64,000 nt of DNA from a virus (taxonomy: Duplodnaviria; Heunggongvirae; Uroviricota; Caudoviricetes), in the IMG/VR virus record IMGVR_UViG_2837719392_000001; one strand, written 5' to 3'. The translations under genes and the position numbers were made by a program. A model generated the notes under the pieces. It was not told the origin of the DNA. It did no database searches and was given only the letters and a program-made list of their open reading frames with translations. Shown piece after piece: positions 23,849-47,014 of the stretch (positions are counted from its first letter, which is position 1; each line of letters starts with the position of its first letter).

Positions 23849-23853
23849 ATAAA

Positions 23854-23941: not shown

Positions 23942-23945
23942 ATAA

Positions 23946-24021
23946 GGTTCCTTAGCTCAGTAGGTAGAGCGGATGACTGTTAATCATTAGGCCGCAGGTT
24001 CAAGTCCTGCAGGGACCGCCA
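23946..24021 (+). tRNA. tRNA-Asn (GTT), intact paralog of the interrupted gene at 22522
   Basis: Acceptor GGTTCCT/AGGGACC, stem GATGA/TCATT, loop CTGTTAA, CCA. Confidence 0.8.
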
Positions 24022-24022
24022 C

Positions 24023-24097
24023 GGCCCGTTCGACAAGTGGTTAAGTCACTACCCTTTCACGGTAGTATCGTGGGTTCAAATCCCGCACGGGTCACCA
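24023..24097 (+). tRNA. tRNA-Glu (TTC), second copy
   Basis: Acceptor GGCCCGT/ACGGGTC, loop CTTTCAC, CCA. Confidence 0.8.
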
Positions 24098-24100
24098 TAT

Positions 24101-24176
24101 GGACATTTAGCTCAGGTGGTAGAGAGGATGATTATTAAAAATCATCAAGTCGGAGGTTCAAATCCTCCAATGTCCA
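24101..24176 (+). tRNA. tRNA-like gene. Paralog of the CAT tRNA at 22849 but with an enlarged anticodon loop (GATGA-TTATTAAAAA-TCATC) and no encoded CCA. Possible pseudogene or unconventional decoder.
   Basis: Acceptor GGACATT/AATGTCC, T-arm GGAGG-TTCAAAT-CCTCC. 10 nt between the 5-bp anticodon stem halves. D-stem has one mismatch. Confidence 0.4.
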
Positions 24177-24186
24177 CTTCTTTCGT

Positions 24187-24262
24187 GGTTTCGTAGCTCA
24201 ATAGGTAGAGCGCTTGGCTGAAGACCAAGGCAGTATTGGTTCAATTCCAGTCGAAACCACCA
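24187..24262 (+). tRNA. tRNA-Phe (GAA)
   Basis: Acceptor GGTTTCG/CGAAACC, stem CTTGG/CCAAG, loop CTGAAGA, CCA. Confidence 0.8.
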
Positions 24263-24267
24263 TAAAT

Positions 24268-24346
24268 GGGGAATGGGAATGCTAGGAGTGTTCACCTGCC
24301 TTGCAAGCAGGAATGCAGATGGGTTCAAATCCCATATTCTCCACCA
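24268..24346 (+). tRNA. tRNA-Ala (TGC)
   Basis: G3-U70 identity pair, stem CCTGC/GCAGG, loop CTTGCAA, slightly long variable region, CCA. Confidence 0.7.
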
Positions 24347-24353
24347 AAAATCT

Positions 24354-24429
24354 AGGAGCGTAGCACAAAGGTGAATGCACACGACCGATAATCGTGCGAC
24401 TGCAAGTTCGAGTCTTGCCGTTCCTACCA
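24354..24429 (+). tRNA. tRNA-Ile (GAT) with C at position 33
   Basis: Acceptor AGGAGCG/CGTTCCT, stem CACGA/TCGTG, loop CCGATAA, CCA. Confidence 0.65.
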
Positions 24430-24432
24430 TAT

Positions 24433-24504
24433 CATCTGTAGCTTATATGGTAAAGCCACAGCCGTTAGTGCTGGGGAAGTTTGGTTCGACTCCAGACCAG
24501 ATGC
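24433..24504 (+). tRNA. tRNA-like gene with aberrant anticodon loop (CGTTAGT, G at position 33, possible TTA/TAG-type anticodon). No CCA.
   Basis: Acceptor CATCTGT/CCAGATG (6 bp), D-arm GCTT/AAGC, T-arm TTTGG-TTCGACT-CCAGA. Anticodon stem has only 4 bp. Confidence 0.35.
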
Positions 24505-24918
24505 CGGAGTTAAGGATTCTCTGAGAAAAATCTATATTGGAAAGGACCACGGTGAGGAATTGTACGCGAAAGCCATGCAACACTATTCCAAATCCGAAAG
24601 CATCTAGCTAATGCCTTGTTGGTCTGAGTTTCAAGTGCGAGGTTGGGGCAGCTTGAACAAGAAATCGTATGGGAATAAAAAATCTGACGACAGCCGGATT
24701 GACAATATATTTCCGTCCTGTATAGGTAAAAGTGGTTTGATGTGAACCGTCAAAAGAAAAAACATCGCTGTCAAATACCGAACAAAGGAGAAGAGTAGGT
24801 AAAAGACAAACCAGAATCCTTGAGGCTATTAACCTCTATTTGAATATCATTGAATAAGTTAATGGTCGACAGTCCATTGGGTAACTCCATAGGAGCACTG
24901 TTAGGTCTTTTCTTTTAT
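24505..24918 (+). ncRNA. candidate structured non-coding RNA (about 410 nt) between tRNA genes. Identity unknown.
   Basis: No plausible ORF on either strand. GC content clearly above flanking DNA. Many short complementary segments. Lies inside the tRNA transcription unit. Confidence 0.3.
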
Positions 24919-24995
24919 AGCAGAATGGCGAAAATGGTAGACGCACAGGACTTTGACTCCTGCATTTGGAGGTTCGAACCCTTCTTCTGCTGCCA
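24919..24995 (+). tRNA. tRNA-Gln (TTG)
   Basis: Acceptor AGCAGAA/TTCTGCT, stem CAGGA/TCCTG, loop CTTTGAC, discriminator G, CCA. Confidence 0.8.
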
Positions 24996-25017
24996 AAATA
25001 CTCAAATGGGGTGATAG

Positions 25018-25604
25018 ATTTGTCAACTTATTATGATTATTATGTTTTTATTAAAAAGGATAATGAGTTTAAGTATGCTGGATACTATGATATTTCTGGC
25101 AAACCCCTTCCCATATATTATCATACCCGTAGCTTCTCATACGGTTTCTTAGATTATGGACAATATGTCGATGACCCAGATAAATATGGTATCCATTTAC
25201 CAAACGAAGGTGATGAGGAAGATGAAGCCAGATTCGGTTACGTTTTCCAATTACCAGATATAGAAGCCATTCCAGACAGAAGCCATAAAGAAGCCTATAT
25301 ATATAAAACACTGAAAAGAGATATGGAAATTAATCATTTCGAATATGACATAGAAGAATATTTGGAAAATGATGAAGAATCTGTCGATGGACATTCACTT
25401 GTTATTTGCAAGAGTGAATTTGATAGACTATCCATAGAAGAACAAAAGAAATACTTTTATTATAAGTGGATTGATTATGAAGATATGTCCTACCATAGAA
25501 ATATTCTATGCACCATCATCAATAACTGGATAAATATAAGACAATTCAAAGAATTTAAAGATATAGATAAAAAGGACATATATGTCATTGCCTTTGGAGG
25601 ATAG
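25018..25604 (+). CDS. hypothetical acidic protein (D/E/Y-rich)
   Basis: ORF 24966..25604, trimmed so it does not overlap tRNA-Gln. Probable TTG/GTG start after a GGGGTGA RBS. Start uncertain. Confidence 0.35.
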
Positions 25605-25617
25605 GGAGGTGATGTAA

Positions 25618-26340
25618 GTGCAATGTAAAATTTATAGACGCACTTGGTCGTTGAAAAGAAAGTATCAACAAGAAGCTTTATTTTTTGACATTGATTCCTT
25701 CTTTCTTCCATATTATAAAAGATGCCATTTAAAAGCGTACAATCGTCCCCAATTTTGGTGGGCAACAGAATGGAATCTTATCTGTGATGAATTCAATCCT
25801 GAAGAATATAAAGATATTGAGTGGTTTCGAAAGAATGTTGCGGGACGCTTTGTGTCTCCTAAAGCGCTTAAATATATTCCATTTGCCAAATCAGATGATG
25901 ATTTCCCTGTACATGAAATAGATGAAATAGAAGTGGTACAATATAAGGTTGTTGATGAATATGGATATCCTATAAGTATGGATGTCTATATTAGTGATTA
26001 TATTGAAGAAAATATCAAAAGATACAAGAACTCATATAGTTTAAACAATCATCATTGTTATCCATCTCTACGCTACTACTGGCGACATCCTCAAACGACA
26101 AATGAAAAAAGACAACAGTTATCTAAAGAAGAAAAAAGATATTATCAAGAAAATGGATGGCATATGAAAGAGCGTTCTAAAAGAAATGCAAGAAATCTGC
26201 CAGATTTATTCGATGATAAATTCATTCATGTTGACAAATGCTGGAAATCTCAGACTCGTCAGCCTCGACAATATTTGAGAAACAAAAGAGCCAAAAGAAA
26301 AAGAATTCATGGAGAGGAATACAGGAATTTTATGGGGTGA
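25618..26340 (+). CDS. hypothetical basic protein
   Basis: GTG start after GGAGGTGA RBS. 240 aa, K/R/Y/W-rich. Confidence 0.4.
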   Translation: MQCKIYRRTWSLKRKYQQEALFFDIDSFFLPYYKRCHLKAYNRPQFWWATEWNLICDEFNPEEYKDIEWFRKNVAGRFVSPKALKYIPFAKSDDDFPVHEIDEIEVVQYKVVDEYGYPISMDVYISDYIEENIKRYKNSYSLNNHHCYPSLRYYWRHPQTTNEKRQQLSKEEKRYYQENGWHMKERSKRNARNLPDLFDDKFIHVDKCWKSQTRQPRQYLRNKRAKRKRIHGEEYRNFMG

Positions 26341-26349
26341 TAAGTAAAC

Positions 26350-26643
26350 TTGTCGTACACTCAAAAACGTCATACAAAAAGCCATATTCGACATGAATTA
26401 TATACTCATATAAAAAGAAAAGAAAAAATATTAAAGAATGTTTACGATGCAGGCTATGGATACTGTAAAAACAATGAAAAACTTGGCTCTTATTATGGAT
26501 ACACGAAAGGACAACCGCATCGTCTTTCAAAAGAAAAGATTCATTGCTCTTGTCCAATGTGTAGAGAAAAGACGAGAGAAAGAGGCTGGAAACACAGTGA
26601 TTTAGTTAATATGATGAAAGGAATTGAAGATGAGAGAGAATAG
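26350..26643 (+). CDS. small basic Cys-containing protein, paralog of 28623..28880
   Basis: MSYTQKRHTK... with ...IHCSCPMCREKT. Shares the MSYxxKRH N-terminus and K-x-HKSCP motif with the ORF at 28623. Confidence 0.45.
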   Translation: MSYTQKRHTKSHIRHELYTHIKRKEKILKNVYDAGYGYCKNNEKLGSYYGYTKGQPHRLSKEKIHCSCPMCREKTRERGWKHSDLVNMMKGIEDERE

Positions 26644-26808
26644 CCAATGTGAATGATGGATAATTCTAGAAAAAATCCGTCAAGACTCTACTCCTATTGA
26701 GGATGGGAAAAACTCAAGCTGAAAGATGCACCAATAACCAAGTATAAGAGGAAGGCTATCAATAGAATGTCATGCTACAGACAGAGGATGTTCATTTGTA
26801 ATAAATAA

Positions 26809-26883
26809 CCGTCTGTAGTCTAATGGATAGGACACGGAGCTACGGACTCCGGGGTGGTGGTTCGATTCCATTCAGGCGGGCCA
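26809..26883 (+). tRNA. tRNA-Arg (ACG)
   Basis: Acceptor CCGTCTG/CAGGCGG, stem CGGAG/CTCCG, loop CTACGGA, discriminator G, CCA. Confidence 0.8.
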
Positions 26884-26896
26884 GTGAGGTAGAAAG

Positions 26897-27508
26897 ATGA
26901 TTAGAGAATTTGTTTATCAAAGGCTTAACTTTCTGATAAATAATGTACAGGTAGAACATTCATCTTTTCTTAATCAATATGCAAAAGATTTTATAAAAGG
27001 AATACAAGAGAAATGTGATGTTAACATGTCGCATGTGTTTATCGAGAATTTTCCTATAATTGTAGCCATACATGATATAGGAAAGAAACATATTCCAGAT
27101 TATATTTTAGAAAAAAAAACTCAGTTGACGGATGATGAATATGAATGTGTACAACGTCATTGCATTTTAGGATATGAAGACTTGCAAGAAGCTTTCAACA
27201 ACATACCTCTGAATGAAGAAGAAAAGGAGTTGATTAAATTATGCAAGGAATCATGTTTATATCATCACGAAAGACTTGATGGGAGCGGATATCCTTATGG
27301 TTATAAACAAATCCCTCTTATCGCTCAGATGGTAGGAATTCTTGATAGTTTTGATGCTATGACTGTAAACAGATGCTATAAGAAAGCCATGAGCAAAGAA
27401 GAAGCTATCAAAAATCTTATTCAATCAGACAAATATAATGAGGAATTTCTTTATGTATTATCGGAGGTGATAGAAGATGAAAATGAAACTAGAAATTCAG
27501 ACAAATGA
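26897..27508 (+). CDS. HD-GYP/HD-domain phosphohydrolase
   Basis: HDIGK...HHERLDGSGYPYGY motif. 203 aa. Confidence 0.65.
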   Translation: MIREFVYQRLNFLINNVQVEHSSFLNQYAKDFIKGIQEKCDVNMSHVFIENFPIIVAIHDIGKKHIPDYILEKKTQLTDDEYECVQRHCILGYEDLQEAFNNIPLNEEEKELIKLCKESCLYHHERLDGSGYPYGYKQIPLIAQMVGILDSFDAMTVNRCYKKAMSKEEAIKNLIQSDKYNEEFLYVLSEVIEDENETRNSDK

Positions 27509-27683
27509 ATTGAATGTAACTTATGAAGAATTAGTCAATCATGTTAAAGACTCTTTAAAAATGAAGAATGTCCCTTTAACAAAAGTGAAAGATGTAAAAG
27601 CATATTATGTTCCTAACACAAAAGTTTTGTATTACACAGCCATGTATAATGGTGAAGAAATCAAAGGAGAAAAATACTTGTAG
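27477..27683 (+). CDS. hypothetical small protein
   Basis: 68-aa ORF overlapping the HD gene's 3' end. Confidence 0.3.
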   Translation: MKMKLEIQTNELNVTYEELVNHVKDSLKMKNVPLTKVKDVKAYYVPNTKVLYYTAMYNGEEIKGEKYL

Positions 27684-28129
27684 TTTTATACTTACAGTTT
27701 TCTCTTTATGCCAGCATTGTGATGAAACCTCCTCGTGGTTGCTGGTGGGTCGCGCTAATATCATCACAAGAAACAGACATATGGCTGAAAATCCTTTCAA
27801 CGGGATAAGGCACACTTGCTTCATGGTGGGTGGAATTCCCATTATAGAAACTCGATTGAGATATAACATAAAGTGGTTCCAAGATGAACAATGCCGTTTG
27901 TAAATTGGCTGTGCGGACAAGGCTTTCCTATCCGGGTAACAAGGAAAGGGAAATCCTTCTGGTGATGCAAATGTCGAGGCACAGGCTCCATGGTAGAAAA
28001 ATCCAGAGAAGAAAAACATATGGTGATATATTCTGTAGTTGATGCCATGGTTGGAGGTCACAGAGTCCTTCTTTTATGCAATGAAAGCAAACGAGGAGCA
28101 GCTTGTTGAGGTATGTACGTCTGTTTTAT
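27684..28129 (+). ncRNA. candidate structured non-coding RNA (about 440 nt) upstream of tRNA-Gln(CTG). Identity unknown.
   Basis: Only Cys/His-rich nonsense ORFs on both strands. GC-rich relative to flanks. Adjacent to tRNA. Confidence 0.3.
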
Positions 28130-28204
28130 ATCGGGATAGCATAATGGTAATGCGCATGGCTCTGAACCATGTCAGTGGAGGTTCGAATCCTTCTCCCGAT
28201 GCCA
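28130..28204 (+). tRNA. tRNA-Gln (CTG)
   Basis: Acceptor ATCGGGA/TCCCGAT, stem CATGG/CCATG, loop CTCTGAA, discriminator G, CCA. Confidence 0.8.
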
Positions 28205-28282
28205 AAAAAATTTCAAAATTAGCAATTCATGATAAAATGATAGTGGTAATCCTAATATCAGGAGCCACTATAATAGAAGATG

Positions 28283-28446
28283 GTAGCAGGGAACTATCAT
28301 CTTCACTATTACATTAAAAAAAAGGAGAAAGATGATAGAAAACCACTATCATCTTAACTACTCTATTATAAAAGAGATGATAGAAGGTCACTATCATCTT
28401 CACTATACTATGACATTATTGATGATAGAAAACCAGTATCATCTTC
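28283..28446. repeat. tandem hairpin repeats: three 45-bp units (28331, 28376, 28421) each containing GATGATAGAAAACCACTATCATCTT (stem GATGATAG/CTATCATC), plus a degenerate copy at about 28283
   Basis: Direct inspection shows a 45-nt period. Repeat about 25 nt, inter-repeat 20 nt. Confidence 0.6.
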
Positions 28447-28450
28447 AAAT

Positions 28451-28525
28451 ATCTCCATAGTTTAGTTGGTAGAACGTCGGTCTCCAAAACCGAAAGCAGA
28501 TGTTCGAGTCGTCTTGGAGGTGCCA
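28451..28525 (+). tRNA. tRNA-Trp (CCA)
   Basis: Acceptor ATCTCCA/TGGAGGT, stem TCGGT/ACCGA, loop CTCCAAA, discriminator G, CCA. Confidence 0.8.
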
Positions 28526-28526
28526 T

Positions 28527-28600
28527 GGTTTCTTGGCAGATTGGTTATGCGCAGGACTGCAACTCCTGTCAAGCTGGTTCGATTCCAGCAGAAATCTCCA
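28527..28600 (+). tRNA. tRNA-Cys (GCA)
   Basis: Acceptor GGTTTCT/AGAAATC, stem CAGGA/TCCTG, loop CTGCAAC, U73 discriminator (Cys identity), CCA. Confidence 0.8.
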
Positions 28601-29159: not shown

Positions 29160-31121
29160 ATGGAATTAAAGAACAATTATCAGTATTTATTACTTTCACA
29201 ATATAGAATGGCTGTTTATGATGATACAGAATTGCCATTAACTCATGAAAATCTCATTAAAGCCATCACATTGAATGAGAATCTATTATCTCTCGGTTAT
29301 ACTTTAACAGCTAAGGATATCATTACATTAGCAACTTCTCCATCATTAGACACCTTTTACTCCTCAATCAAATCCATCATCCCAAATATCAAAGCTAAGC
29401 CAATGTATCCAAACTTTCCTCAACAGGTCATGAAGATGGATGAGGCAACATATCGCTTCCATCAAATGGTTCACTATTTTTCGACATATGGACTCGAATC
29501 TATGTTGCCAATTGAGATTTGTAAAGGATGGTTGCCTAGCGTTGAAGACACAGAAAAGATTAAAGAGGATGATACGTTATTAGAAGCCAAGGTACTAAGA
29601 CTTTTACCTTGTAAACTCCAATATCAAACTCCTTACACATTATCTGTATCAAAGACTGAAAGAATGACTGCCATGGAAAGAGAAATTGTCAGACATGCGT
29701 GTACAGAAATTCCTTTAAAAATCCTTCAGCAAACACCTATCCCATTTAAGGAGAATTTATTGGAATTATCATGGATTCTTTTCAATACATTAGAAAAACA
29801 ATCATTTCAGGATACACTTTCAAAAATCTGCAAACATACCGGAGATGTGTTAAGAGTCATCGCATACATCTATAAAAGAAATCATTACCATTTCAAGACA
29901 AGTCAGAAAAGAATGTTTGTGCAGGTTCTGGAAAGATATTCCCCTGCAGACCTTGAAATAAACCTGATGCTTTCTTGGAAGAAAAGAGAGGGAAATATCA
30001 AGGTTTTACAGGGGATTGATTATCAGAACTACTCTCGCTCATTACCTCATATGAATGCTGTCAAAAAGCTAAGAAACAAGGAGTTGCGTTCATGGAATGG
30101 ACAGGTTGATGCTATGCTTAAGATAAAGGATGAAAAGGCCGTCTCTTACATTGGTCAAAGACCAGGAATGCTACTGAGAATGATGGCATGGTTGATGAGA
30201 CTAGGATATGATAAAGAATCAATCAAGAAGGAACTGATGTATCATCGTGAAGACTTATCTATGCCAACTCTTATAACAGTCTTGACGTATTTCGGGGGAC
30301 ATGAGGAAAGAGAAGAGGCTGAAGGAATTTATGAAGTTTTAAGTGAGGTTCTTTTTGAAAAGATGAAATATCTCAAAACACCTCTACAGAACAAGAAAGT
30401 CTATGTGGATGAAGGAAACTTCTCCATGATAGATTCCATTGTTGAGTGTTCATCAAAATCTGATGAGGGAGGATACATCAGAAGTGGACTTGCCATCAAG
30501 ATTCCAGAGAATGTAAAGAGATTACGTTTCTTTGTCTACTGGAATGACAAGAAGAGAGTGGATATTGACCTCCACGCTGATGCCTTTGATAAGGAAGGAA
30601 ATGCATTTCATGTTGGATGGTATGGAGAATATCATAAAAATGGTATTGTGACATCAGGAGATATCACACATAGCAACGCTGCAGAATATATTGATATTGA
30701 TATGACAAAGAATGTAGCTCGTGTCGATGCTCAAATTGATATCTACGATGGAAAGAGAAGTTTCAAGGAAATAGAAGAGTGTTTTGTTGGAATGATGGCT
30801 GTCAATCAATTAGGAGAAGACGTGAAGCTATATAATCCAAAGAACTGCTTCTTCTCACATTATCTAAGAAGTCAGCTGGACTATATGAACTATGGATTTA
30901 TTGCTGTAGACAAAAGACTTCTAATCTTTGGAGGAAAGAATAGAATAGAAGACTTGTACTCATCAAAGTTCAATCTTAAAGTCTATGTGGATTTGCTTTG
31001 CTTGGCACAAGGGGCAACAATGGTTTCCAATAGAGAGGAAGCTGAAATCATCTTAAGTGTAGATAAGAGAGAAGAAGAGAATAGTGTATCTCTGATAGAT
31101 AATAACTTTTTTGTTGAATAG
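29160..31121 (+). CDS. large hypothetical protein with C-terminal TerD-like domain
   Basis: C-terminal VDIDLHADAFDKEGNAFHVGWYGE...SGDITHSNAAEYIDIDM matches the TerD fold pattern. AAGGAGG RBS. Confidence 0.5.
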   Translation: MELKNNYQYLLLSQYRMAVYDDTELPLTHENLIKAITLNENLLSLGYTLTAKDIITLATSPSLDTFYSSIKSIIPNIKAKPMYPNFPQQVMKMDEATYRFHQMVHYFSTYGLESMLPIEICKGWLPSVEDTEKIKEDDTLLEAKVLRLLPCKLQYQTPYTLSVSKTERMTAMEREIVRHACTEIPLKILQQTPIPFKENLLELSWILFNTLEKQSFQDTLSKICKHTGDVLRVIAYIYKRNHYHFKTSQKRMFVQVLERYSPADLEINLMLSWKKREGNIKVLQGIDYQNYSRSLPHMNAVKKLRNKELRSWNGQVDAMLKIKDEKAVSYIGQRPGMLLRMMAWLMRLGYDKESIKKELMYHREDLSMPTLITVLTYFGGHEEREEAEGIYEVLSEVLFEKMKYLKTPLQNKKVYVDEGNFSMIDSIVECSSKSDEGGYIRSGLAIKIPENVKRLRFFVYWNDKKRVDIDLHADAFDKEGNAFHVGWYGEYHKNGIVTSGDITHSNAAEYIDIDMTKNVARVDAQIDIYDGKRSFKEIEECFVGMMAVNQLGEDVKLYNPKNCFFSHYLRSQLDYMNYGFIAVDKRLLIFGGKNRIEDLYSSKFNLKVYVDLLCLAQGATMVSNREEAEIILSVDKREEENSVSLIDNNFFVE

Positions 31122-31270
31122 ACTGCTCATATAGGGTAGTCTATTTTTTATAAAGAAACGGATATGTTAATAATAGGAAAATCATAAAATTATTTAGAAA
31201 AATAACAAATATTTATAAAAATATGTTATTATAGAGAAGTCAAAAATAGTAAAGAAAGGAGGTTGGATGA

Positions 31271-32734
31271 ATGTTAAATACTATTTTATCGCCAGGAATT
31301 ATTATAGGAGCCATCGTTATTATCATTATTGTTTTGATTATGTTGACTGGTTATGTCAAGGCATCACCAGATACGGCGTATATTATATCTGGATTGAGAA
31401 AAGAACCAAAAGTTTTGATTGGTAAAGCAGGAATTAAAATACCTTTCCTAGAAAAGAAAGATGAATTGAATTTACAATTAATTCCTATTGATGTACAAAC
31501 TTCTAACGCTGTACCAACAGCCGATTATATCAATATTAATGTCGATGCTACAGTGAATGTAAAAATCAGTGACAAAACAGAATTATTGAATTTAGCTGCA
31601 CAAAACTTTTTAAATAAATCGACAGAATATATTGCAAGAGTAGCACGAGAAGTCCTTGAGGGAAACGTTCGTGAAATTGTCGGCCGAATGAATTTGGAAG
31701 AAATGGTTTCTGATAGACAAAAATTTGCTGAATTGGTTAAGGAAAATGCAGAACCAGATTTGGCAAAAATGGGACTAGATATCGTTTCTTTTAATGTTCA
31801 GAATTTCATGGATGACCAACAAGTTATTGAAAACCTTGGTGTTGATAATATTGTAAAAATTCAAAAGAATGCAGCCATTTCTAGAGCAGTGAGCGAACGA
31901 GACATTGCAGAAGCCCAATCAAAAGCTTCACAAGAAGCCAATGATGCTAGAATTGAAGCGGAAACAAAAATTGCAGAAAGAAATAATGAATTAGCCATTA
32001 AACAGGCAGAATTAAAGAAGGTTTCTGATGCAAAGAAAGCAGAAGCAGATGCTGCTTATAAGATTCAAGAAGAACAATCTCGTAAGTCTATTGAAATTGC
32101 CACTGCAGATGCCAACATTATGCGCCAAGAAAAGGAAATTGAATTAAGAAGAAAAGATGTAGAAGTCACTGAACAAGAATTAGAAGCCAAAATCAAAAAA
32201 CAGGCAGAAGCTGAAAAATTTGCTGCTCAACAAAAAGCTGATGCTGAATTGTATAAGCGTCAAAAAGAAGCTGAAGCAAGATTCTTTGAGACTCAAAAAG
32301 AAGCCGAAGCTCAAAAGGCTAAAGCAGAAGCTATCAAATATCAAATGGAACAGGAAGCTGCTGGTATTGCAGCCAAAGGTGAGGCTGAAGCCAAAGCCAT
32401 TGAAGCAAAAGGTATTGCTGAAGCTCAAGCTCTTGATAGAAAAGCAGAAGCTATGAAAAAATATGGAGAAGCTGCCATTGCTGAAATGTATTTCAATGCT
32501 TGGCCAAAAGCTGTTGAAGCAGCTGCAAAACCTCTTGAAAAGGTTGGTAATATTACTATGTATGGTGAAGGAAACAGTGCAAAGCTTATTGAGGACGTTA
32601 TGAAAAGTACAACTCAAGTCAATTCAGGTTTAGAAGGAAGTATCGGCATGGGATTAAATCCAATGTTATCTAGTTTGCTTGGAATCAAAGCAATGTCAAC
32701 TTTATCTGATAATCAGACTAATGAAGGAGAGTAA
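31271..32734 (+). CDS. flotillin-like SPFH/band-7 membrane protein
   Basis: N-terminal TM helix, SPFH region, long EA/AK coiled-coil repeats (AEAEKFAAQQKADAE...). Confidence 0.7.
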   Translation: MLNTILSPGIIIGAIVIIIIVLIMLTGYVKASPDTAYIISGLRKEPKVLIGKAGIKIPFLEKKDELNLQLIPIDVQTSNAVPTADYININVDATVNVKISDKTELLNLAAQNFLNKSTEYIARVAREVLEGNVREIVGRMNLEEMVSDRQKFAELVKENAEPDLAKMGLDIVSFNVQNFMDDQQVIENLGVDNIVKIQKNAAISRAVSERDIAEAQSKASQEANDARIEAETKIAERNNELAIKQAELKKVSDAKKAEADAAYKIQEEQSRKSIEIATADANIMRQEKEIELRRKDVEVTEQELEAKIKKQAEAEKFAAQQKADAELYKRQKEAEARFFETQKEAEAQKAKAEAIKYQMEQEAAGIAAKGEAEAKAIEAKGIAEAQALDRKAEAMKKYGEAAIAEMYFNAWPKAVEAAAKPLEKVGNITMYGEGNSAKLIEDVMKSTTQVNSGLEGSIGMGLNPMLSSLLGIKAMSTLSDNQTNEGE

Positions 32735-32881
32735 TCCCCTTCATTTTTTTTCTGTATTTTTCGCACAAAGCAACATTTATATGATAAAATATAGACAATT
32801 TGAAATAGGTGTAGACACCTGGAGGGCAGAGAAGATACGTATTCATTTATGTGTTTTCTCTGTCTTTTTATGGAGGTAGAA

Positions 32882-33181
32882 ATGATAAGAGTTAATTACG
32901 ATTTTACTATCAAATCTTATTCACAGGGATATAAGGTTTATCGTGAGTTACATAAGATTGATAAAAAGGGAAACCCATTATATGATTTTTTAGGATATGC
33001 TACTGATATTCCACATGCTCTGGGAATGATTCAAAAACGCATGGAAAGAGAAAAGGTAGATGAAGGTGATTGGACATTAAAAGAAGCAATTGAACAATTC
33101 AAGGCAATTCATGATGATTTATATAAGGATTTTTTAAGTATTGAACAAACTATCAAAAACCATGAAAACACTCACTCATAA
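32882..33181 (+). CDS. hypothetical protein
   Basis: ATG with GGAGGT RBS (MIRVNYDF...). Confidence 0.4.
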   Translation: MIRVNYDFTIKSYSQGYKVYRELHKIDKKGNPLYDFLGYATDIPHALGMIQKRMEREKVDEGDWTLKEAIEQFKAIHDDLYKDFLSIEQTIKNHENTHS

Positions 33182-33401
33182 TTGGATAAGATTTTGGATT
33201 GGCTACATAGCCCTGTTTATGATTTTATGCATGGCTGATGTAAAAACTGGATTGTTCTTTTATGGCCCCATCGGGATTATGCATGGAATGTTGATAGGAT
33301 ATATCATATATCCAAATATGAATGATAAGAAGTTTTATATTCCATACTATTTGTATTATATTTGGACATTTGTTAACTGTTTATTGTTTATATACTTGTA
33401 A
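33141..33401 (+). CDS. hypothetical small membrane protein
   Basis: 86-aa ORF with hydrophobic segments. Confidence 0.3.
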   Translation: MNKLSKTMKTLTHNWIRFWIGYIALFMILCMADVKTGLFFYGPIGIMHGMLIGYIIYPNMNDKKFYIPYYLYYIWTFVNCLLFIYL

Positions 33402-33496
33402 AATAAAAACAACAAAAAGTAGATAATAGCATATCTATATTGACTTAAAACAGTTAATATGATATAATATGTATACATTTGAAGGAGGTATGATAG

Positions 33497-34390
33497 ATGG
33501 CTAATAAAAGTTTTATTATTAATAAATTAAAAGAAAGATTAGCATGGATGAAGGAAAATACTGACTATAATGTGGCATTTATCTGTCTTCAGGGAAGCCA
33601 AAATTATGCTATGGATACAAAAAAAAGTGATGTTGACGTTAAGTGCTTTATAGTTCCTACGCTAAAGGACATGGTAAGCAATAAACAACCAGTCAGCAAA
33701 ATTTATACTATGGATGATAACAGCATCATTGATGTTAAAGATATAAGACTGTTACCTTCATTGCTACATAAATGCAATCCATCTTATCTTGAACTTTTGT
33801 ATTCTGATTATTTTTTAACAAACAATTCTTATCATCGCGTACCAACTTTAAGATTGAAAAAACAATTAAAGAAAGTTCGTCATGATATTTGCAATAGAGA
33901 TGTTATGCGTTTTATGAAATGCTTAAAAGGCAATGTACATGATAGACGTAAACATATGGAAAAAGAAACAGAAACGACTGCTAAGGACATTGAAATCTAT
34001 GGATATGTTCCTAAGGACTTTCATCATTTATTGAGATATACTTACATGATTGAAGAAATCAATAGACTTGGTAAAATCAAGTTTGAGTCATTAATGTCTC
34101 TTGATTTTTTAACAAGACCGAAATTCAATGAATTAAAGCTCTACAAGACAAATCCTGTTTCAAAAGTGGAAGCCATGAGATTAGCAGATATGTATGTCAA
34201 TAAAGCGGATAGAATTGTAGAAGAATTTGAAGCAAACTATAGTGGCAATATTAATGATGAAATTGATGAAAAAGTGAAACATTATGTCAATGAGTATGTA
34301 GAGTTCTGTATTGAACGTGATGTGATTACAGAATTCGTTGACAAGGTTCAACAAAAGAAATTAAAAGAAGTAGAAAGAGAAAGGAGCTAA
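33497..34390 (+). CDS. pol-beta-superfamily nucleotidyltransferase (GS-x10-DVDV motif). CD-NTase- or AbiEii-like.
   Basis: CLQGSQNYAMDTKKSDVDVKCF is the GS...[DE]h[DE]h NTase signature. Third acidic motif IIDVKDI. GAAGGAGG RBS. Confidence 0.5.
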   Translation: MANKSFIINKLKERLAWMKENTDYNVAFICLQGSQNYAMDTKKSDVDVKCFIVPTLKDMVSNKQPVSKIYTMDDNSIIDVKDIRLLPSLLHKCNPSYLELLYSDYFLTNNSYHRVPTLRLKKQLKKVRHDICNRDVMRFMKCLKGNVHDRRKHMEKETETTAKDIEIYGYVPKDFHHLLRYTYMIEEINRLGKIKFESLMSLDFLTRPKFNELKLYKTNPVSKVEAMRLADMYVNKADRIVEEFEANYSGNINDEIDEKVKHYVNEYVEFCIERDVITEFVDKVQQKKLKEVERERS

Positions 34391-34459
34391 GTTATAATTT
34401 TATAGAATCTGAAAAGCTACCTTTTATGGTGGCTTTTTTTTCTTAGGAGGGATACAAGC

Positions 34460-34960
34460 ATGACTTTAGAAGAATTAAAAAATATTAGTAATGAAATCAA
34501 GATAAGAAATAGTACAGGTACTCATATGATAAAGCATGTTTTTATTTATAAACCTTCAAAGAAAACATTTAAGACCTTTCAAAAATTAAATTTACCTTAT
34601 ATAAGTGACTTAATTCTTTCAATAGATGAGGACAAAAAATCATGCTTTCAGTTCTACTATGAGTCTCATCTAGAGAATGAGTTTCACGGTGTTATAGATA
34701 TAGAATGCAATGAAAATGGTTTTTGTTCCTATGTCTGTTTTAAAACAAGATACTTGAGAAAGAAATCTCCTAATAAGTATAGAGATTTAGGCAATTTTGA
34801 AATATATGGCGTCATAAGGGGTGGGAAGTTATTTCAATATCAGGTTTATACATCGATAGCTTTTTATAAAGATGCTGATATTTGTCCGGGTTGTGGAAAT
34901 ATTAATTATTTAAGCTATCAAGAAGCGTTAAAAAAAAGAAATAGCTATTTACATGAATAA
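34460..34960 (+). CDS. hypothetical protein, tandem paralog A
   Basis: MTLEELKNISNEIKIRN... about 40% identical to the next gene. Confidence 0.45.
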   Translation: MTLEELKNISNEIKIRNSTGTHMIKHVFIYKPSKKTFKTFQKLNLPYISDLILSIDEDKKSCFQFYYESHLENEFHGVIDIECNENGFCSYVCFKTRYLRKKSPNKYRDLGNFEIYGVIRGGKLFQYQVYTSIAFYKDADICPGCGNINYLSYQEALKKRNSYLHE

Positions 34961-35006
34961 CCCAGATTTTGGGCTAAGAAGAATGTATACACTGAAATAA
35001 AAGGAG

Positions 35007-35495
35007 TTGAAAAATATGACTTTAGAAGAATTCAAAAGCATCAGCAATGAAATTAAATTAAGAAATATGACATCTCAAAATATGATTCGACATTGCTTTA
35101 TTTATAATCCAACAGAGGAAGATTTTCAAAATCTTGTTAAGATGAAACTCATATATCATGAGCATAAGGATTCAGATTTCTTTACATTTGGAAAGTGGAA
35201 GCGTCCAAACAATGAAATGATTTCCTTTTTGAATGTAAAGATAGATATTCAATGCAATGAAGAAGGATTTGTAGCTTATACATGCTTCTTTGCTACTGAA
35301 GGAGGAAATAATAATAATCGAGGATATCTGAATTTAAAAGAAAACGAAATCATAGGAGTTATTCATAATCATCAATTTGGTTATTCAAAGTATGAGTCAC
35401 TTAATTTTTATTTAGATATGTTATGTAGAGATAGAGAAACAAGACCTGATTTTTCTATATATCAAGAAATTCAAAAGGCGACAGCTTTATGTTAG
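35007..35495 (+). CDS. hypothetical protein, tandem paralog B
   Basis: MTLEEFKSISNEIKLRN... Confidence 0.45.
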   Translation: MKNMTLEEFKSISNEIKLRNMTSQNMIRHCFIYNPTEEDFQNLVKMKLIYHEHKDSDFFTFGKWKRPNNEMISFLNVKIDIQCNEEGFVAYTCFFATEGGNNNNRGYLNLKENEIIGVIHNHQFGYSKYESLNFYLDMLCRDRETRPDFSIYQEIQKATALC

Positions 35496-35531
35496 AAATT
35501 TTATTGGGATTTTACCCAGGAGTGAAAGGAG

Positions 35532-36026
35532 TTGGAATTAAGAAATCTATTCCCTAATGAAGCTTTGGATTTTACACCATGGCTAGCAAAAAACAATTTA
35601 ATACCAGATATCATTCATACCCTCAACCTCTTTGATAATCCTATCCATCTCTATAAGACTGAAGTTTCAGTAGGAGACTATCGTTTAGATATGATTTACA
35701 AAGAATCTGGAGGGAAGGGGAGTCTGATAGTAGAAAATCAATATGGCAACAGTGACTCCCGACATCTCGGACAAATCATCGTTTATTCCAAGCTGACTCA
35801 TATACCTAAAATACTGTGGATATGTGATAAGGTGTGCTTGGAGCATCGAAGAATATCCGAGAGTTTGAATGGTATCGAGATAATCCCAGTGTCTATGGAG
35901 ATTGTTCCTAGAGCAGAGAGAAGATACTTCCTTAAATCTCACATATATGGCAACTATAACCGAGTTATCACTTATCGACTTGGGGAAGATTGTGAGGTTT
36001 TGGGAAGGATTATAAATGGAGTGTAG
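35532..36026 (+). CDS. putative PD-(D/E)xK-fold nuclease-like protein
   Basis: GDYRLDMIY...LIVENQYG arrangement resembles the D...ExK/Q restriction-endonuclease core. Low certainty. Confidence 0.35.
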   Translation: MELRNLFPNEALDFTPWLAKNNLIPDIIHTLNLFDNPIHLYKTEVSVGDYRLDMIYKESGGKGSLIVENQYGNSDSRHLGQIIVYSKLTHIPKILWICDKVCLEHRRISESLNGIEIIPVSMEIVPRAERRYFLKSHIYGNYNRVITYRLGEDCEVLGRIINGV

Positions 36027-36066
36027 ATATAAATTTCTTTGAAAAAAAGCATGAGGAGGTAGAAGA

Positions 36067-36507
36067 ATGGAAATTACAGTCAATTCAAATATTTTATTTG
36101 GAAGTATTATTGCAATTATAGTCATTATTGTTAGTCTAATAGGATTATTTTGTGATGAAGATGAAAAACATCTGACTCATATGGGATATTTTGCTTGTTT
36201 CTTTTTTGGAACAACAGCGTTAGCGTTAGTCCTTTTTGGAAACAGTGTATCATATTCTGAAAATACGGTATTTCTAACAGAAATTCCTAATACTCATGAA
36301 TATTACATCTATCATCAAGGAGATGAACAAAGTTCATTGCAGTATATGGCAGGAAATAAATTGATAACTGACAAAGTCAATGATTTAGAGATTATCTATG
36401 ATGCCAAAGATGAACCTTATATGGAAATAGAGGAAGGGAAAAGCATCATCAATCAGACAATAGAAAAAAATGTAACTATTCATATGACTATTGAGGGAAA
36501 TGAATAG
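36067..36507 (+). CDS. membrane-anchored protein, tandem paralog 1 of 4
   Basis: N-terminal TM helix. Conserved C-terminal motif PYMEIEEGKS...VTIHMTIEGNE. Confidence 0.45.
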   Translation: MEITVNSNILFGSIIAIIVIIVSLIGLFCDEDEKHLTHMGYFACFFFGTTALALVLFGNSVSYSENTVFLTEIPNTHEYYIYHQGDEQSSLQYMAGNKLITDKVNDLEIIYDAKDEPYMEIEEGKSIINQTIEKNVTIHMTIEGNE

Positions 36508-36552
36508 ACTTGAGATGCCAAAATGGCATTTCAAGATGTGAGGAGGTAATAG

Positions 36553-37014
36553 ATGGCAAATGTAATTATTATACTCGGAATAATTTTTTTAATCATTGGA
36601 TGCGTTTATGCTATATATTGTTTCATAAATGAAATGGACTTATATATGACGATATTCTTTTCTGTGTTTTGTTTGGTCATAGGTGGGATACTCATAAAAG
36701 ATGGAATAGATAGGAAGAACGCTAAAGAACAAGAACAAATGAGAAACGAGATTGTTGATATTGATGAAAGAACTGTTGTTCTCAAAGAATTACCAGAGCA
36801 ATCATCGTATTATGATGTTCAGAATTTGTCTGGTGGTACAAAGATAAAATATTTGGATGGCAAAGAATTAGTGACCTTAAATATTGATAATTATAGAGAA
36901 TTTTATGATGCCGAGAATCAACCATATATTGAAATCAAAGAGAGCAAAAATACATACGGTGACGTGCTAGAAACAAATGTTGTTATTCATTTGAAGGTGC
37001 TAGAAGATGACTAA
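36553..37014 (+). CDS. membrane-anchored protein, tandem paralog 2 of 4
   Basis: TM helix + QPYIEIKESKNTYGDVLETNVVIHLKVLEDD. Confidence 0.45.
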   Translation: MANVIIILGIIFLIIGCVYAIYCFINEMDLYMTIFFSVFCLVIGGILIKDGIDRKNAKEQEQMRNEIVDIDERTVVLKELPEQSSYYDVQNLSGGTKIKYLDGKELVTLNIDNYREFYDAENQPYIEIKESKNTYGDVLETNVVIHLKVLEDD

Positions 37015-37447
37015 TAATGAGCTTTTCCTTTATATAGGATTCGCATGTTTCTTCTTTGCGTTTATAGCTTTCTTGCAATTTCTTTGGGATGATTACGATG
37101 TTGTTATGAAGGAGTTTAGAGAAAGAGTATCCTTTTTTGCCATTTCCATAATCGTAGGATTCTTATGTTTTATTCCTGTGACGACATCTACTCAGGAAAA
37201 CACTATCAAACTCAAGCCTATACCTGAACAAGGAACTTATTACACGTATCAAGAGAGTGATAAAACAATACGATATTTAGATGGAAGTGAATTAAAGAGC
37301 ATGAAAGCAAATAGCTGTAAGGTTCTTTTTGATATTAATGATGATAAGCAGCCATATATGGTGAAAACTGATAATTACAATGTTTATGGCAATAAAATTC
37401 AGACAGAAGTAGTTGTACATTTGAATAGTTTAGAAACCCAAGAGTAA
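37007..37447 (+). CDS. membrane-anchored protein, tandem paralog 3 of 4
   Basis: TM helix + QPYMVKTDNYNVYGNKIQTEVVVHLNSLETQE. Confidence 0.45.
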   Translation: MTNNELFLYIGFACFFFAFIAFLQFLWDDYDVVMKEFRERVSFFAISIIVGFLCFIPVTTSTQENTIKLKPIPEQGTYYTYQESDKTIRYLDGSELKSMKANSCKVLFDINDDKQPYMVKTDNYNVYGNKIQTEVVVHLNSLETQE

Positions 37448-37458
37448 CGGAGGTATAT

Positions 37459-37884
37459 ATGATAATAGCATTTAGTCTTATATTGATAGGAATATTATTG
37501 TTTTGCTTAGGTTTATATTTGATGGAAGATTTTCATCCTGCATTATCATTATTATGCATTATTTTATGTTCAATTTCTGTGGCAGTAGGAGTTTTCTTTC
37601 CAATTGATAAGACAACAACAAAATATTATATTGCTGAAGAAATGAAAAATAACGAGGCTATTGCCTTACTAGAGAAAAACTGTGATGAATATACAATGAA
37701 GTATATAGAAGAAAATGAATTGAAGACAATAGATGAAGACAAGTCTGATACCAAAATTTACTTTGATGCTGAAAAGCCGTTTATCGAGGTGGAAAGAATA
37801 CAAACTCTATTCTTTAGTGGGACGTCTATGAGCTTGCATTTTCAAACACAAGAACAGATGGAAAAATTGATAGAAAATGAATAA
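37459..37884 (+). CDS. membrane-anchored protein, tandem paralog 4 of 4
   Basis: TM helix + KPFIEVERIQ... Confidence 0.45.
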   Translation: MIIAFSLILIGILLFCLGLYLMEDFHPALSLLCIILCSISVAVGVFFPIDKTTTKYYIAEEMKNNEAIALLEKNCDEYTMKYIEENELKTIDEDKSDTKIYFDAEKPFIEVERIQTLFFSGTSMSLHFQTQEQMEKLIENE

Positions 37885-37911
37885 CCTTATTTTAAATAGG
37901 AGGAGTAATAT

Positions 37912-38229
37912 ATGGATAAAACAAATCAAAACATTGAGCAGATATTTACTGACCCAAAAAAACTTGATAACTTCTTAGAAAATCCCAAGGAGTTAGAATA
38001 TGTATTATATGAATGTCTGACTCAAAAAGATAATACACGTTTTATTCAAATACTGACATTATTAAAAAGAAGGTTAAATCAAAGAACTAGAATGTCTGAA
38101 GATAATAATGAAAAAGCATATAAAATTGGATATGCTAAAGGAATGTTAAATCTCTGCATGAAAATGGCTACTATTAAGTCAGAAAATGAAATGAAAGAAT
38201 TAAATTCTTCAGATATAAAACAGAGGTGA
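37912..38229 (+). CDS. hypothetical protein
   Basis: 105-aa ORF with GGAGG RBS. Confidence 0.4.
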   Translation: MDKTNQNIEQIFTDPKKLDNFLENPKELEYVLYECLTQKDNTRFIQILTLLKRRLNQRTRMSEDNNEKAYKIGYAKGMLNLCMKMATIKSENEMKELNSSDIKQR

Positions 38230-38238
38230 TAAGGAAAA

Positions 38239-38634
38239 ATGACTGACAATTCAAAACACAAAATGAATTATGAAATTAAAACGGATGAAGATTATAACGT
38301 ATATATATTAGCTACAACAAATGACATCGATGTCCTTATTAAAATGAAAAATGGGCTTTTGCCGAATCCACATGGATATTCTAAAACGGAATTGTCCAGG
38401 GCAATAGAACTTTATAATACAGAAGAGTTTGTAAATACAAGAGAAGAACTTTTGAAAGATAATATTGAAGCATCCTATGAAGTAACACTGATTATTGATG
38501 ATTTTGGTAAAGACTTTTATTCAATTTATGGCGAACCAGAGATAGACGAATATTTAAAAAGTTTTTCAAATGAAAGATTTCGTATAAAGGATATAAAACA
38601 TTTAAAGGCTTTGAAAAGATATAAAAATTACTAA
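38239..38634 (+). CDS. hypothetical protein
   Basis: 131-aa ORF. Confidence 0.4.
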   Translation: MTDNSKHKMNYEIKTDEDYNVYILATTNDIDVLIKMKNGLLPNPHGYSKTELSRAIELYNTEEFVNTREELLKDNIEASYEVTLIIDDFGKDFYSIYGEPEIDEYLKSFSNERFRIKDIKHLKALKRYKNY

Positions 38635-38696
38635 TTGGTTTCAATCAAAAATAAGTATTAACAAAAACAAAAAAACAAAATATCAGAGGTGATACA

Positions 38697-38849
38697 ATGA
38701 CTATAGGAGATATAATACCTTTATTTCTTAAGCTATTTGCTCAATCGTGGGGACTCTGCTTTTTGGCTGTTTTTGCATGTATGAGCCTAAGTTTGTTGTT
38801 TTTGATTTTGATGGAACCAGTATTTCGAAAGTTAGATAAGAATACCTAA
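38697..38849 (+). CDS. small hydrophobic membrane peptide (50 aa)
   Basis: GAGGTGA RBS. MTIGDIIPLFLKLFAQSWGLCFLAVFACMSLSLLFLILMEPVFRKLDKNT. Confidence 0.4.
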   Translation: MTIGDIIPLFLKLFAQSWGLCFLAVFACMSLSLLFLILMEPVFRKLDKNT

Positions 38850-45196: not shown

Positions 45197-47014
45197 ATGG
45201 CAAAAACATTAAAAAAACCAAAGTATGATGCATTAACATTTGCATATTCAAAAAAAGAAGCAGGGAAAATGATTCCTAATACAACTTTTACAGCAGGAGG
45301 AGAAGATGAAAGATTCTATAGTATTAAAAACAAGACAATCTTGCCATCTACTGGAAAAGTAGCATCTATATTATCTGATAAGATTGCAAAAGCAATTTTA
45401 GAATCTCAGTTAACAAATGATGAAACGATGATAGGATGGGGTAAAAATGGAACTGAGCAATTTATTTATGGAGAATTGCCTGGTGGTTCTGCAAGTGATA
45501 TAGAAAAATTCATTATTAACTTAGATGAAAAGAAAATCTATGCAACGAATATCTATTCACATCTTTTATATAAAGTTATCCTAGCATATGACTTATTGCA
45601 ATTTGTCTTAGCTGGTGAAAAAGCAACAGATGAACAAAGAGAGGCTTATGAGATTTTAGCAGGTATTAACTATTTACCTACTGAACCTTTTGATGAAACA
45701 TCTATTTTAGTAGATTCGGCTGAAAAAGAAAGTTTTGTCACTTTATGTGATAGTATTTTACAAACAGCATCAATGTTTAATGGTTATGAGTTTGATACTG
45801 AAATACCTAATAAAGATAAGGACTTTGATATCTATGCTAATAAGATTAAATATAATCTTTTGCCATTAGTTGCTATGCATAATAAGGTTGATGATATGTC
45901 TATTGATACTGGAGAAGAAGATGAAGATGGAAATCCTATCTATATTCCGGAAATCAAACCTCTCAAAGTCAAAAGAAAGAAAAAAGGAGCGAAATCTAAA
46001 GCAAACTCATCTATTCCGTATAAAGATAGAGATTATACGTTAATGACTGATGAAGAAGCTGAAGATTTACCTGAAGAATTAAAGATTCAAAGAGATGCAT
46101 GTATTGAACTTTATGAAAGAAATAAAGAGTTTATGGATGATAATGATGAGCTTTGGGAATGTATCTTAAGCTTCTATCATGGAAACATCTGGAAAATGGG
46201 ATTCTTTGGACCATCTGCTTCTGGGAAAACAACGTTTGTCAGAATGATGGCAGGAGCATTAAAATTACCTTTCGCACTGGTAACAGGTAATAGAGATACA
46301 GAAACAGCACAGTTGTTTGGACATATGACAATCAAAGATGGAGATATGGTCTTCGTTGATGGCCCATTGACTCAAATTGCGAGATACGGTGGTATCTTCT
46401 TATTTGATGAAAGAAATATGGTCAACGCTGGTGTCGTGTCAGCGACAAACAACTTGCTTGATGATACTCGTATGTGTACAATTCCTCAAACTGGAGAAAC
46501 TATCAGAGCTCATAAAAACTTCAGATATTGTGAAGCTTTCAATATTGGATATGAAGGGACAAAAGAAGACAACTTGTCACATATTTCACGTATTGATGAA
46601 TTCCATAAATTGGCACATACAGATGAAACAGAAGCTAAAATCGTCGTTGCGAATTCTGGAATTGAATTAGGAGTAGCCAAAACGATGATTCAAGTCAAAA
46701 ACAATATCACAAAAGAAATCATAGAAGACGGGGATGAAACTACTCAAAGAGTAGATTTACGTTCTTGTATTTCATGGGCTAAAAAGACAATGGATTTGGA
46801 AGGTAATGCATTAAGAGCAGCACTTTCTACAATCTTAACACCTCTATCAAAAGAAGTTGATACAGTTTTAAGCAGTAATAATATCAAGAACTTCTCTGCT
46901 ACAGGGGACCCTGTCGTAGATTATGCTTCTAATGAGATTAGAAAATATTTCGATGAAAGTGTTAAAAAGAAAGTCATCAAGAAAGAATATGAATTTGAAA
47001 AATATGAACTTTAA
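45197..47014 (+). CDS. MoxR/CbbQ-like AAA+ ATPase (AAA_5) with about 300-aa N-terminal extension
   Basis: Walker A FFGPSASGKTTFV, Walker B IFLFDE, sensor residues. Confidence 0.65.
   Translation: MAKTLKKPKYDALTFAYSKKEAGKMIPNTTFTAGGEDERFYSIKNKTILPSTGKVASILSDKIAKAILESQLTNDETMIGWGKNGTEQFIYGELPGGSASDIEKFIINLDEKKIYATNIYSHLLYKVILAYDLLQFVLAGEKATDEQREAYEILAGINYLPTEPFDETSILVDSAEKESFVTLCDSILQTASMFNGYEFDTEIPNKDKDFDIYANKIKYNLLPLVAMHNKVDDMSIDTGEEDEDGNPIYIPEIKPLKVKRKKKGAKSKANSSIPYKDRDYTLMTDEEAEDLPEELKIQRDACIELYERNKEFMDDNDELWECILSFYHGNIWKMGFFGPSASGKTTFVRMMAGALKLPFALVTGNRDTETAQLFGHMTIKDGDMVFVDGPLTQIARYGGIFLFDERNMVNAGVVSATNNLLDDTRMCTIPQTGETIRAHKNFRYCEAFNIGYEGTKEDNLSHISRIDEFHKLAHTDETEAKIVVANSGIELGVAKTMIQVKNNITKEIIEDGDETTQRVDLRSCISWAKKTMDLEGNALRAALSTILTPLSKEVDTVLSSNNIKNFSATGDPVVDYASNEIRKYFDESVKKKVIKKEYEFEKYEL

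Follow-up and report, generated by a model that had tools for sequence, protein, structure and literature searches.

A predicted RlaP-type nucleotidyltransferase, orphan X proteins and a putative reader-less Madara-type nuclease in a phage-like Massilimicrobiota element

The DNA analysed here, hereafter the window, is a 64,000-nucleotide stretch from a virus of the class Caudoviricetes (IMG/VR record IMGVR_UViG_2837719392_000001), and this study concerns four genes at 33497–36026 on its + strand: a nucleotidyltransferase (NTase) gene, two genes for the paralogous proteins X1 and X2 (together X) and a gene for a nuclease-like protein, ORF4 (Table 1). By the names of their sources, NTase-X-ORF4 genes belong to the gut bacterium Massilimicrobiota (sp. 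An142, B5E87_03525-03540) and lie on contigs of up to 256 kb. A first-pass annotation of the sequence had listed these genes, all four of which are present, and had read them as a defence or anti-defence cassette with a signal-generating NTase and a nuclease effector. The genes are indeed of a type found in phage-host conflict; the logic of signal and effector was not retained, as the NTase matches the RNA-repair family RlaP, ORF4 exhibits no sensor domain and a terminator-like hairpin lies between the two. ORF4 instead appears to be a Madara-type restriction nuclease devoid of its reader domain.

The order NTase-X-ORF4, with the genes adjacent, was found in 8/8 distinct loci with an NTase identity of at least 45% (the window, L001, L002, L003, L004/5, L055, L056 and L057), and this association is gone at NTase identities of 41% or below. 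Transcription signals were scanned across 32600–38800: the promoter-like site before the NTase gene is the best-scoring one in this region (11/12 matches), the terminator-like hairpin after the NTase gene is the only such site in the 6.2 kb covered, and no convincing separate promoter for X was found after the terminator. All eight loci (8/8) possess a GC-rich hairpin with a U-run directly 3' of the NTase stop codon, with stem sequences that differ between them; folding was computed for 7 of these regions and gave z-scores between -2.4 and -4.5. The exact pattern of the ORF4 leader is present in the window, L001–L004 and L055, and in the alignment of the window with L001–L004 its conservation exceeds that of the coding sequence on either side; it is not conserved in L056/L057, and Rfam gave no match on 32700–36300. 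Base composition differs within the cluster: the GC content of the ORF4 gene is 37.8% (36% at third codon positions, GC3) compared to 27–30% for the NTase, X1 and X2 genes (GC3 22–26%) and 33% for the window, which hints at another origin of the ORF4 gene or another constraint acting upon it.

Table 1. Genes and sequence signals of the NTase-X-ORF4 cluster
Feature	Position in window	Strand	Description
NTase gene	33497-34390	+	297 aa; predicted Pol-beta nucleotidyltransferase of the RlaP family (PF10127); predicted catalytic residues G33-S34, D45, D47, D82
X1 gene	34460-34960	+	166 aa; orphan protein; additional, basic copy (pI 8.8)
X2 gene	35016-35495	+	159 aa from ATG; orphan protein, paralog of X1; open reading frame (ORF) lister gives TTG at 35007, 162 aa
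ORF4 nuclease gene	35532-36026	+	164 aa, TTG start; putative stand-alone NucS/Madara-type PD-(D/E)xK nuclease; E44, D53, E68-N-Q70, Q81xxxY85; C-terminal beta domain of ~50 aa; without DUF4268
Promoter-like site	33440..33468	+	TTGACT-17-TATAAT with extended -10 TG; followed by ribosome-binding site GAAGGAGG and NTase ATG; match to consensus, promoter function inferred
Intrinsic-terminator-like hairpin with T-run	34411..34446	+	11-bp stem; between NTase and X1 genes
ORF4 leader (~27 nt)	35505..35531	+	small hairpin TGGG-N-CCCA, AGGAG (written TGGG-N-CCCAGGAG-TGAAAGGAG); TGAAAGGAG, then TTG/GTG start

The nucleotidyltransferase and its relatives

The NTase scores 38.5 bits against the Pfam family RlaP, where the cut-off lies at 23 (E 1.4e-9; residues 10–201 on profile positions 4–180 of 249), and it also matches phrog_388, annotated as 'nucleotidyltransferase', in the PHROGs collection (E 3.5e-13); a search of PDB sequences returned no significant match. 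The first-pass annotation had recognised a minimal Pol-beta signature in this 297-residue protein (GS-x10-DVDV and an acidic residue downstream), which corresponds to G33-S34, 10 residues, D45-V-D47 and D82. In our alignment of 34 sequences this signature is conserved, with no variation at G33, S34, D47 or D82 and at least 90% conservation of D45. Membership of RlaP requires a Pol-beta core with three strictly conserved Asp residues (PMC12776372), and D45-x-D47 together with D82 supply this feature in the window NTase. The proposal that the protein is of the CD-NTase or AbiEii type had to be given up, as no CD-NTase, SMODS, AbiEii or KNTase model from Pfam or PADLOC reached E 0.1; the sole PADLOC match, PDC-S09, has E 0.0037 and covers 48 N-terminal residues. 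Neither AbiEii nor AbiEi was detected by Pfam or PADLOC in the 10 proteins scanned, and the alternative that had been allowed for, an AbiEii protein missing its AbiEi, is not what was found: the family match is to RlaP.

Homologues of the NTase number 773, with many encoded on contigs of 100–250 kb and most of the close ones carrying a precomputed PF10127 match; annotated homologues occur in large Bacillus phages at 21–32% identity. The RNA-repair neighbourhood known from RlaP, with an RNA ligase (RtcB, Rnl) or further repair enzymes, surrounds NTase homologues in loci L059/L060, and for the homologue P0039 (33% identity) the gene order is HNH, RNA ligase (PF09414), an 84-aa protein, RlaP and a polynucleotide kinase (PNK)-like kinase, while the locus of P0029 (40% identity) contains a HAD_SAK_2 phosphatase 2.4 kb upstream. 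RlaP enzymes add 1–2 nucleoside monophosphates to the 3'-OH of RNA in a Mn2+-dependent reaction, prefer mimics of cleaved tRNA and restore the aminoacylation of over-trimmed tRNA (PMC12776372), and RlaP is the commonest NTase in jumbo phages (PMC7824862). In RlaP an RNA-binding cleft is built from an N-terminal NTase domain and a helical domain at the C-terminus. The window NTase resembles the Pseudomonas enzymes PfRlaP/PaRlaP and T4 NrdC.11 in its score above the curated hidden Markov model (HMM) cut-off, its three catalytic Asp residues and its similar size, and it resides in a large, tRNA-rich, phage-like genome of the kind typical of jumbo phages. It differs from them in having X and a DNA-type nuclease as fixed neighbours, and its activity is a prediction. 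Judged by these family features, the NTase is most plausibly an RlaP-type RNA-repair enzyme; it adds a member to a known family and stands among neighbours that are atypical of it.

ORF4 and the Madara-type nucleases

The PADLOC model PDC-S11 matched ORF4 at E 3e-27, with residues 2–113 aligned to profile positions 12–120 of 318. The AlphaFold2 (AF2) model of ORF4, with a predicted local distance difference test score (pLDDT) of 84.7 and a predicted template modelling score of 0.83, exhibits a PD-(D/E)xK fold in which D53, E68, N69 and Q70, invariant in 13 homologues, are placed on adjacent strands, so that the D...ExQ core suspected earlier is borne out. Beyond this core the model contains a C-terminal extension of ~50 residues forming four strands. 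ORF4 has no Pfam match and no significant match among PDB sequences; its structural matches include PD-(D/E)xK tRNases (CdiA-CT). Approximately 40 relatives of ORF4 were found on IMG/VR contigs, most of them 305–350 aa long and with the glutamate of the ENQ motif mostly at residues 71–84 in the full-length proteins; three full-length relatives were scanned and possess DUF4268 at approximately residues 174–308. The C-terminus of ORF4 was also considered as a DUF4268 remnant and rejected as such, with an hhalign probability of 3.8% between DUF4268 and the ORF4 family.

PDC-S11 has been renamed Madara and combines a NucS-like nuclease with an EVE-like C-terminal domain; its defence is abolished by the D63A mutation, and it restricts T4 containing glucosyl-hydroxymethylcytosine and not T4(C) (bioRxiv 10.64898/2026.09.05.749240). 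MdgA, which probably belongs to the same family, consists of a nuclease and DUF4268, is inactive as the E77A mutant and degrades T4 DNA in vitro. The family, whose members are modification-dependent, type IV-like restriction nucleases made of one protein and are reported to restrict hypermodified phage DNA, has been characterised only in 2025–2026 preprints. As estimated from the HMM offset, D53 and E68 of ORF4 would fall at about the positions of Madara D63 and MdgA E77, and ORF4 shares with the family a homologous N-terminal NucS-like PD-(D/E)xK domain together with the signature FTPWLA...D...(I/V)(I/V)ENQ...HLG(Q/K)..(T/V)Y. The differences concern architecture and context: ORF4 comprises 164 aa rather than ~310, has neither the linker nor a DUF4268/EVE-like reader at its C-terminus, where the unrelated ~50-aa beta domain is found instead, and it is encoded on the backbone of a mobile element beside an orphan partner, whereas Madara is found in a bacterial defence island. 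NucS/EndoMS, the mismatch endonuclease of archaea and actinobacteria, is a more distant relation: its identity to ORF4 is 11–12%, only the nuclease core aligns (99/226 residues at 11% identity), ORF4 is devoid of the N-terminal DNA-binding/dimerisation domain, and the sequence homology of ORF4 is to the Madara family. The closest parallel in organisation lies in split pairs of nuclease and DUF4268 (P0139 and its neighbour, loci L006–L008), in which a stand-alone nuclease of ~167 aa from the same family, with 35% identity to ORF4, has its partner encoded next door; in these pairs, however, the partner is a recognisable DUF4268 gene immediately downstream, whilst the neighbour of ORF4 is X, which lies upstream and is unrelated to DUF4268. 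Taken together, these comparisons indicate that ORF4 represents the nuclease portion of PDC-S11/Madara, a restriction protein of type IV-like character, with the reader domain gone, and as such a putative new architectural variant of a known family. A Madara-type restriction nuclease would then also occur reader-less and stand-alone, within the backbone conserved in a large mobile element of the gut and beside the orphan X in 8/8 loci.

These assignments bear directly on the idea of a CBASS-like (cyclic-oligonucleotide-based antiphage signalling) or AbiE-like cassette, in which a signal from the NTase (or the NTase as AbiEii toxin) would switch on the nuclease effector and the paralogs would have accessory roles. 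Pfam, PADLOC and the model revealed no SAVED, CARF, STING or other ligand-sensing domain in ORF4, which offers only ~50 residues beyond its nuclease core; the NTase scores above the RlaP threshold, with the models of the signalling and toxin families absent at E <= 0.1, and its relatives stand in RNA ligase operons; the cluster contains no AbiEi-like gene, and the terminator separates the NTase from the other genes. The cassette is thus largely refuted and in our view most improbable, and removing this false lead is one outcome of the present analysis.

The X proteins and the relation between the modules

X1 and X2 are 42% identical over 143 aa (BLASTP, E 6e-25), in agreement with the two paralogs of ~165 aa and ~40% identity reported in the first pass, and the first 105 nt of their genes are 73% identical at the DNA level. 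The family, in which protein length ranges from 160 to 190 aa, is small: a word-indexed search of 5.8 billion proteins yielded 6 clusters, and when all 1.84 billion cluster representatives were scanned with an HMMER profile, 8 matches emerged, 3 of which were spurious repetitive proteins, leaving ~5 genuine ones. No member was found in IMG/VR, and a single one was found in GTDB species genomes, in the metagenome-assembled genome (MAG) of Candidatus Massilimicrobiota merdigallinarum. Scans of all X members with Pfam, PADLOC and PHROGs produced no match and the X profile reached only E > 1 against the PDB, so that the earlier description of the paralogs as an uncharacterised family holds. Structure prediction, proposed in the first pass and performed for X and ORF4, succeeded only in the latter case: AF2 with 7 X sequences gave a pLDDT of 41 and no usable model. 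A diverged DUF4268 reader was considered for X and rejected at the sensitivity of hhalign (probability 0.06%).

Across the same loci X identity is 23–43% compared to 45–73% for the NTase and 55–74% for ORF4, X therefore diverging much faster than its neighbours. X is single-copy in all seven related loci examined, including the near-identical MAG locus L055, from which X1 is absent; because every relative has one X, X1 represents a polymorphic extra copy, and the duplication is specific to the window's variant of the element. Tandem paralogs of another kind are present in L061 (5001–7419), where two proteins of 210 and 198 aa, 40% identical to each other, come after an RlaP homologue that shares 40% identity with the window NTase. 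As remote relatives of X these are not supported, with only the motif 'NGFxSY' in common and an hhalign probability of 0.4%; the shared motif may be a coincidence or reflect a very remote relationship.

For the cluster as a whole we favour two adjacent modules of phage-host conflict, a reading for which we regard the case as evenly balanced, and under which both would be part of the backbone conserved in a large phage-like, plasmid-like Massilimicrobiota element. The first module would be the monocistronic RlaP-family NTase, complementing the 26 tRNA genes of the element by repairing RNA. The second would consist of X, duplicated in the window, followed by the NucS/Madara-type PD-(D/E)xK endonuclease after loss of the DUF4268/EVE-like reader of modified DNA: ORF4, presumably translated weakly from its conserved TTG/GTG start, would cut DNA, and the fast-evolving X encoded just upstream would be its regulatory or specificity partner, either choosing the target or restraining the nuclease. 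Demonstrated for this reading are the families and folds to which the proteins belong, the conservation of their catalytic residues, the order of the genes, the hairpin of the terminator and the absence of the reader, whereas the substrates, the role of X and any cooperation between the two modules are inferred. If X does control or target ORF4, the locus would show how mobile elements re-tool host type IV restriction domains, and an RlaP enzyme with no RNA ligase in sight could help to test the role of RlaP in tRNA-rich phage-like elements.

Several observations weigh against this reading of the locus. Unlike the known RlaP enzymes, the NTase has no RNA ligase, RtcB, PNK/kinase or phosphatase partner among the ~54 window ORFs scanned with Pfam, and a BLAST search of the window with the ligase and kinase proteins from L059/L061 found none, so that the RNA-repair pathway is incomplete in the visible 64-kb part of the element, beyond which up to ~190 kb more may lie. 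In the ORF4 family the position of the ExK lysine is occupied by Gln throughout (E68-N-Q70), and because this catalytic Lys is replaced family-wide the case for ORF4 activity relies on the Madara and MdgA experiments; an RNA substrate is conceivable because some of its PD-(D/E)xK structural matches are tRNases. X, whose partnership with ORF4 is deduced, has no detectable fold and no homologue beyond its own family. The nuclease is, furthermore, kept without any X in the distant relative L014, a 112-kb IMG/VR contig: here the ORF4-like nuclease stands alone, its active site is intact, and it is flanked by homologues of window genes that belong to the replication/recombination region. Finally, synteny and a similar degree of divergence extend over the entire region in the elements compared, taking in the TerD-like, flotillin, HTH, AAA_5 and VWA genes, and because of this extended synteny the adjacency of NTase, X and ORF4 argues only weakly for a joint function.

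L014 contains a further relative of the cluster: at 2376–6462 a 565-aa RlaP-like protein that has lost 2/3 of the catalytic Asp residues (those of DxD) is fused to a long coiled coil, and it is followed by a DEDD exonuclease, two ORFs of unknown function and, 1.9 kb downstream of the RlaP-like protein, the stand-alone ORF4-like nuclease.

This arrangement enters into a second explanation, in which the three proteins form one system for the processing of nucleic-acid ends: ORF4 would, for example, trim damaged or over-extended RNA, RlaP would rebuild it, X would act as an RNA-binding or scaffold adaptor, and partial read-through of the terminator would do no more than set the expression ratio. 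The study of RlaP itself postulates an as yet unknown nuclease for the removal of one of the two nucleotides added (PMC12776372), and some PD-(D/E)xK folds are tRNases. A degenerate RlaP-like protein near an ORF4-like nuclease in L014 fits with such a link, as do the lack of a convincing X promoter after the terminator and a gene order shared by 8/8 loci, the most distant at 45% NTase identity, despite variation in the genes immediately upstream (flotillin block, Y-family polymerase, HD block). The L014 nuclease, however, is intact even without X and beside an NTase-like protein from which two catalytic Asp residues have disappeared; RlaP homologues occur elsewhere without X and nuclease, the nuclease family occurs elsewhere without the NTase and as a DNA restriction protein, the terminator between NTase and X is conserved, and whole-region synteny accounts for the adjacency. 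On balance we consider end processing unlikely.

A different form of coupling would be an undescribed three-part NTase-X-nuclease system of giant phage-like elements, in which X would be a new kind of sensor or specificity subunit replacing the EVE-like reader and RlaP would be functionally coupled, for instance by marking or repairing ends made or spared by the nuclease. This we judge quite improbable; in a weaker form of the proposal, X could represent a novel family that regulates the type IV-like nucleases carried by mobile elements.

The antitoxin-first gene order likewise invites a comparison with toxin-antitoxin systems, in which X and ORF4 would act as a module of the addiction or abortive type and thereby stabilise the large element, with ORF4 as toxin, X neutralising it and the NTase unrelated. 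A weak, conserved TTG/GTG start behind a structured leader would hold the nuclease below X in amount, the element possesses the plasmid-type maintenance genes ParA, ParB and RepA_N, and a nuclease devoid of its reader has no obvious means of choosing a target. Against this, X with its 160–190 aa exhibits no DNA-binding or known antitoxin domain, no toxin-antitoxin model in PADLOC or Pfam was matched, L014 has the nuclease without X, and the far faster divergence of X compared to the nuclease is unusual for a tightly co-evolving pair. We therefore rate the addiction module as rather improbable too, and retain the two adjacent modules, with X as partner of the nuclease, as our preferred interpretation.

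Surrounding genes of the element

A megablast search with 10 kb against phages and plasmids gave no match and a search with the AAA_5 protein of the backbone found distant ATPases only; the element is consequently without an annotated close relative. In appearance it combines phage-like traits with maintenance genes of the plasmid type, and it could be either a phage or a plasmid. The region 1285–21078 encodes ParA (7774–8736, - strand), a ParB-like protein (6771–7820, - strand) and a RepA_N initiator (19456–21078) in addition to RecJ, RecD2 and a DEDD exonuclease. The array of 26 tRNA genes lies at 22273–28600 (+ strand) and includes a predicted suppressor-type 'tRNA-Stop' with the anticodon TTA (24433–24505), which would read UAA, as well as an unusual tRNA-Phe(AAA); a gene for an HD_5 phosphohydrolase (26897–27508) is located inside the array.

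Between the tRNA array and the NTase gene, at 29160–32734 (+ strand), a 653-aa protein that in part matches the MXAN_6230/SCO0854 family (NF041916; C-terminal region, phrog_33734) precedes a FloT-like flotillin (487 aa); L001, L004 and L057 retain this pair, but L002 and L003 lack it upstream of the NTase. Directly downstream of ORF4, at 36067–37884 (+ strand), four tandem paralogs of ~141–153 aa are encoded, which are 19–33% identical and have transmembrane segments at the N-terminus and, at the C-terminus, a conserved motif (...PY.E......V.H...); some relatives of the element have 1–3 copies and others none. An AAA_5 (MoxR/CbbQ-like) ATPase of 605 aa and a VWA/CobT_C-like protein of 755 aa occupy 45197–49334 (+ strand), a pair conserved at 39–83% identity in the related loci that reach that far.

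The region 50328–55420 holds an arginase-family gene (50328–51050) adjoining that of a radical SAM/SPASM enzyme (51070–52140), and on the opposite strand genes for a prepilin peptidase A24 (52168–52638), FtsH (52658–54328) and a signal peptidase S26 (54428–54934); these five genes are unusual cargo for a phage-like element. At 58065–63994 (- strand) a DnaE-like DNA polymerase III alpha subunit is encoded in three pieces, 62636–63994 (PHP and NTPase), 60590–61393 (NTPase and finger) and 58065–59522 (finger, HHH and OB), which are separated by homing endonuclease ORFs of the HNH/NUMOD (61547–62275) and GIY-YIG (59622–60425) types: the interruptions probably represent two mobile introns, a phage-like trait.

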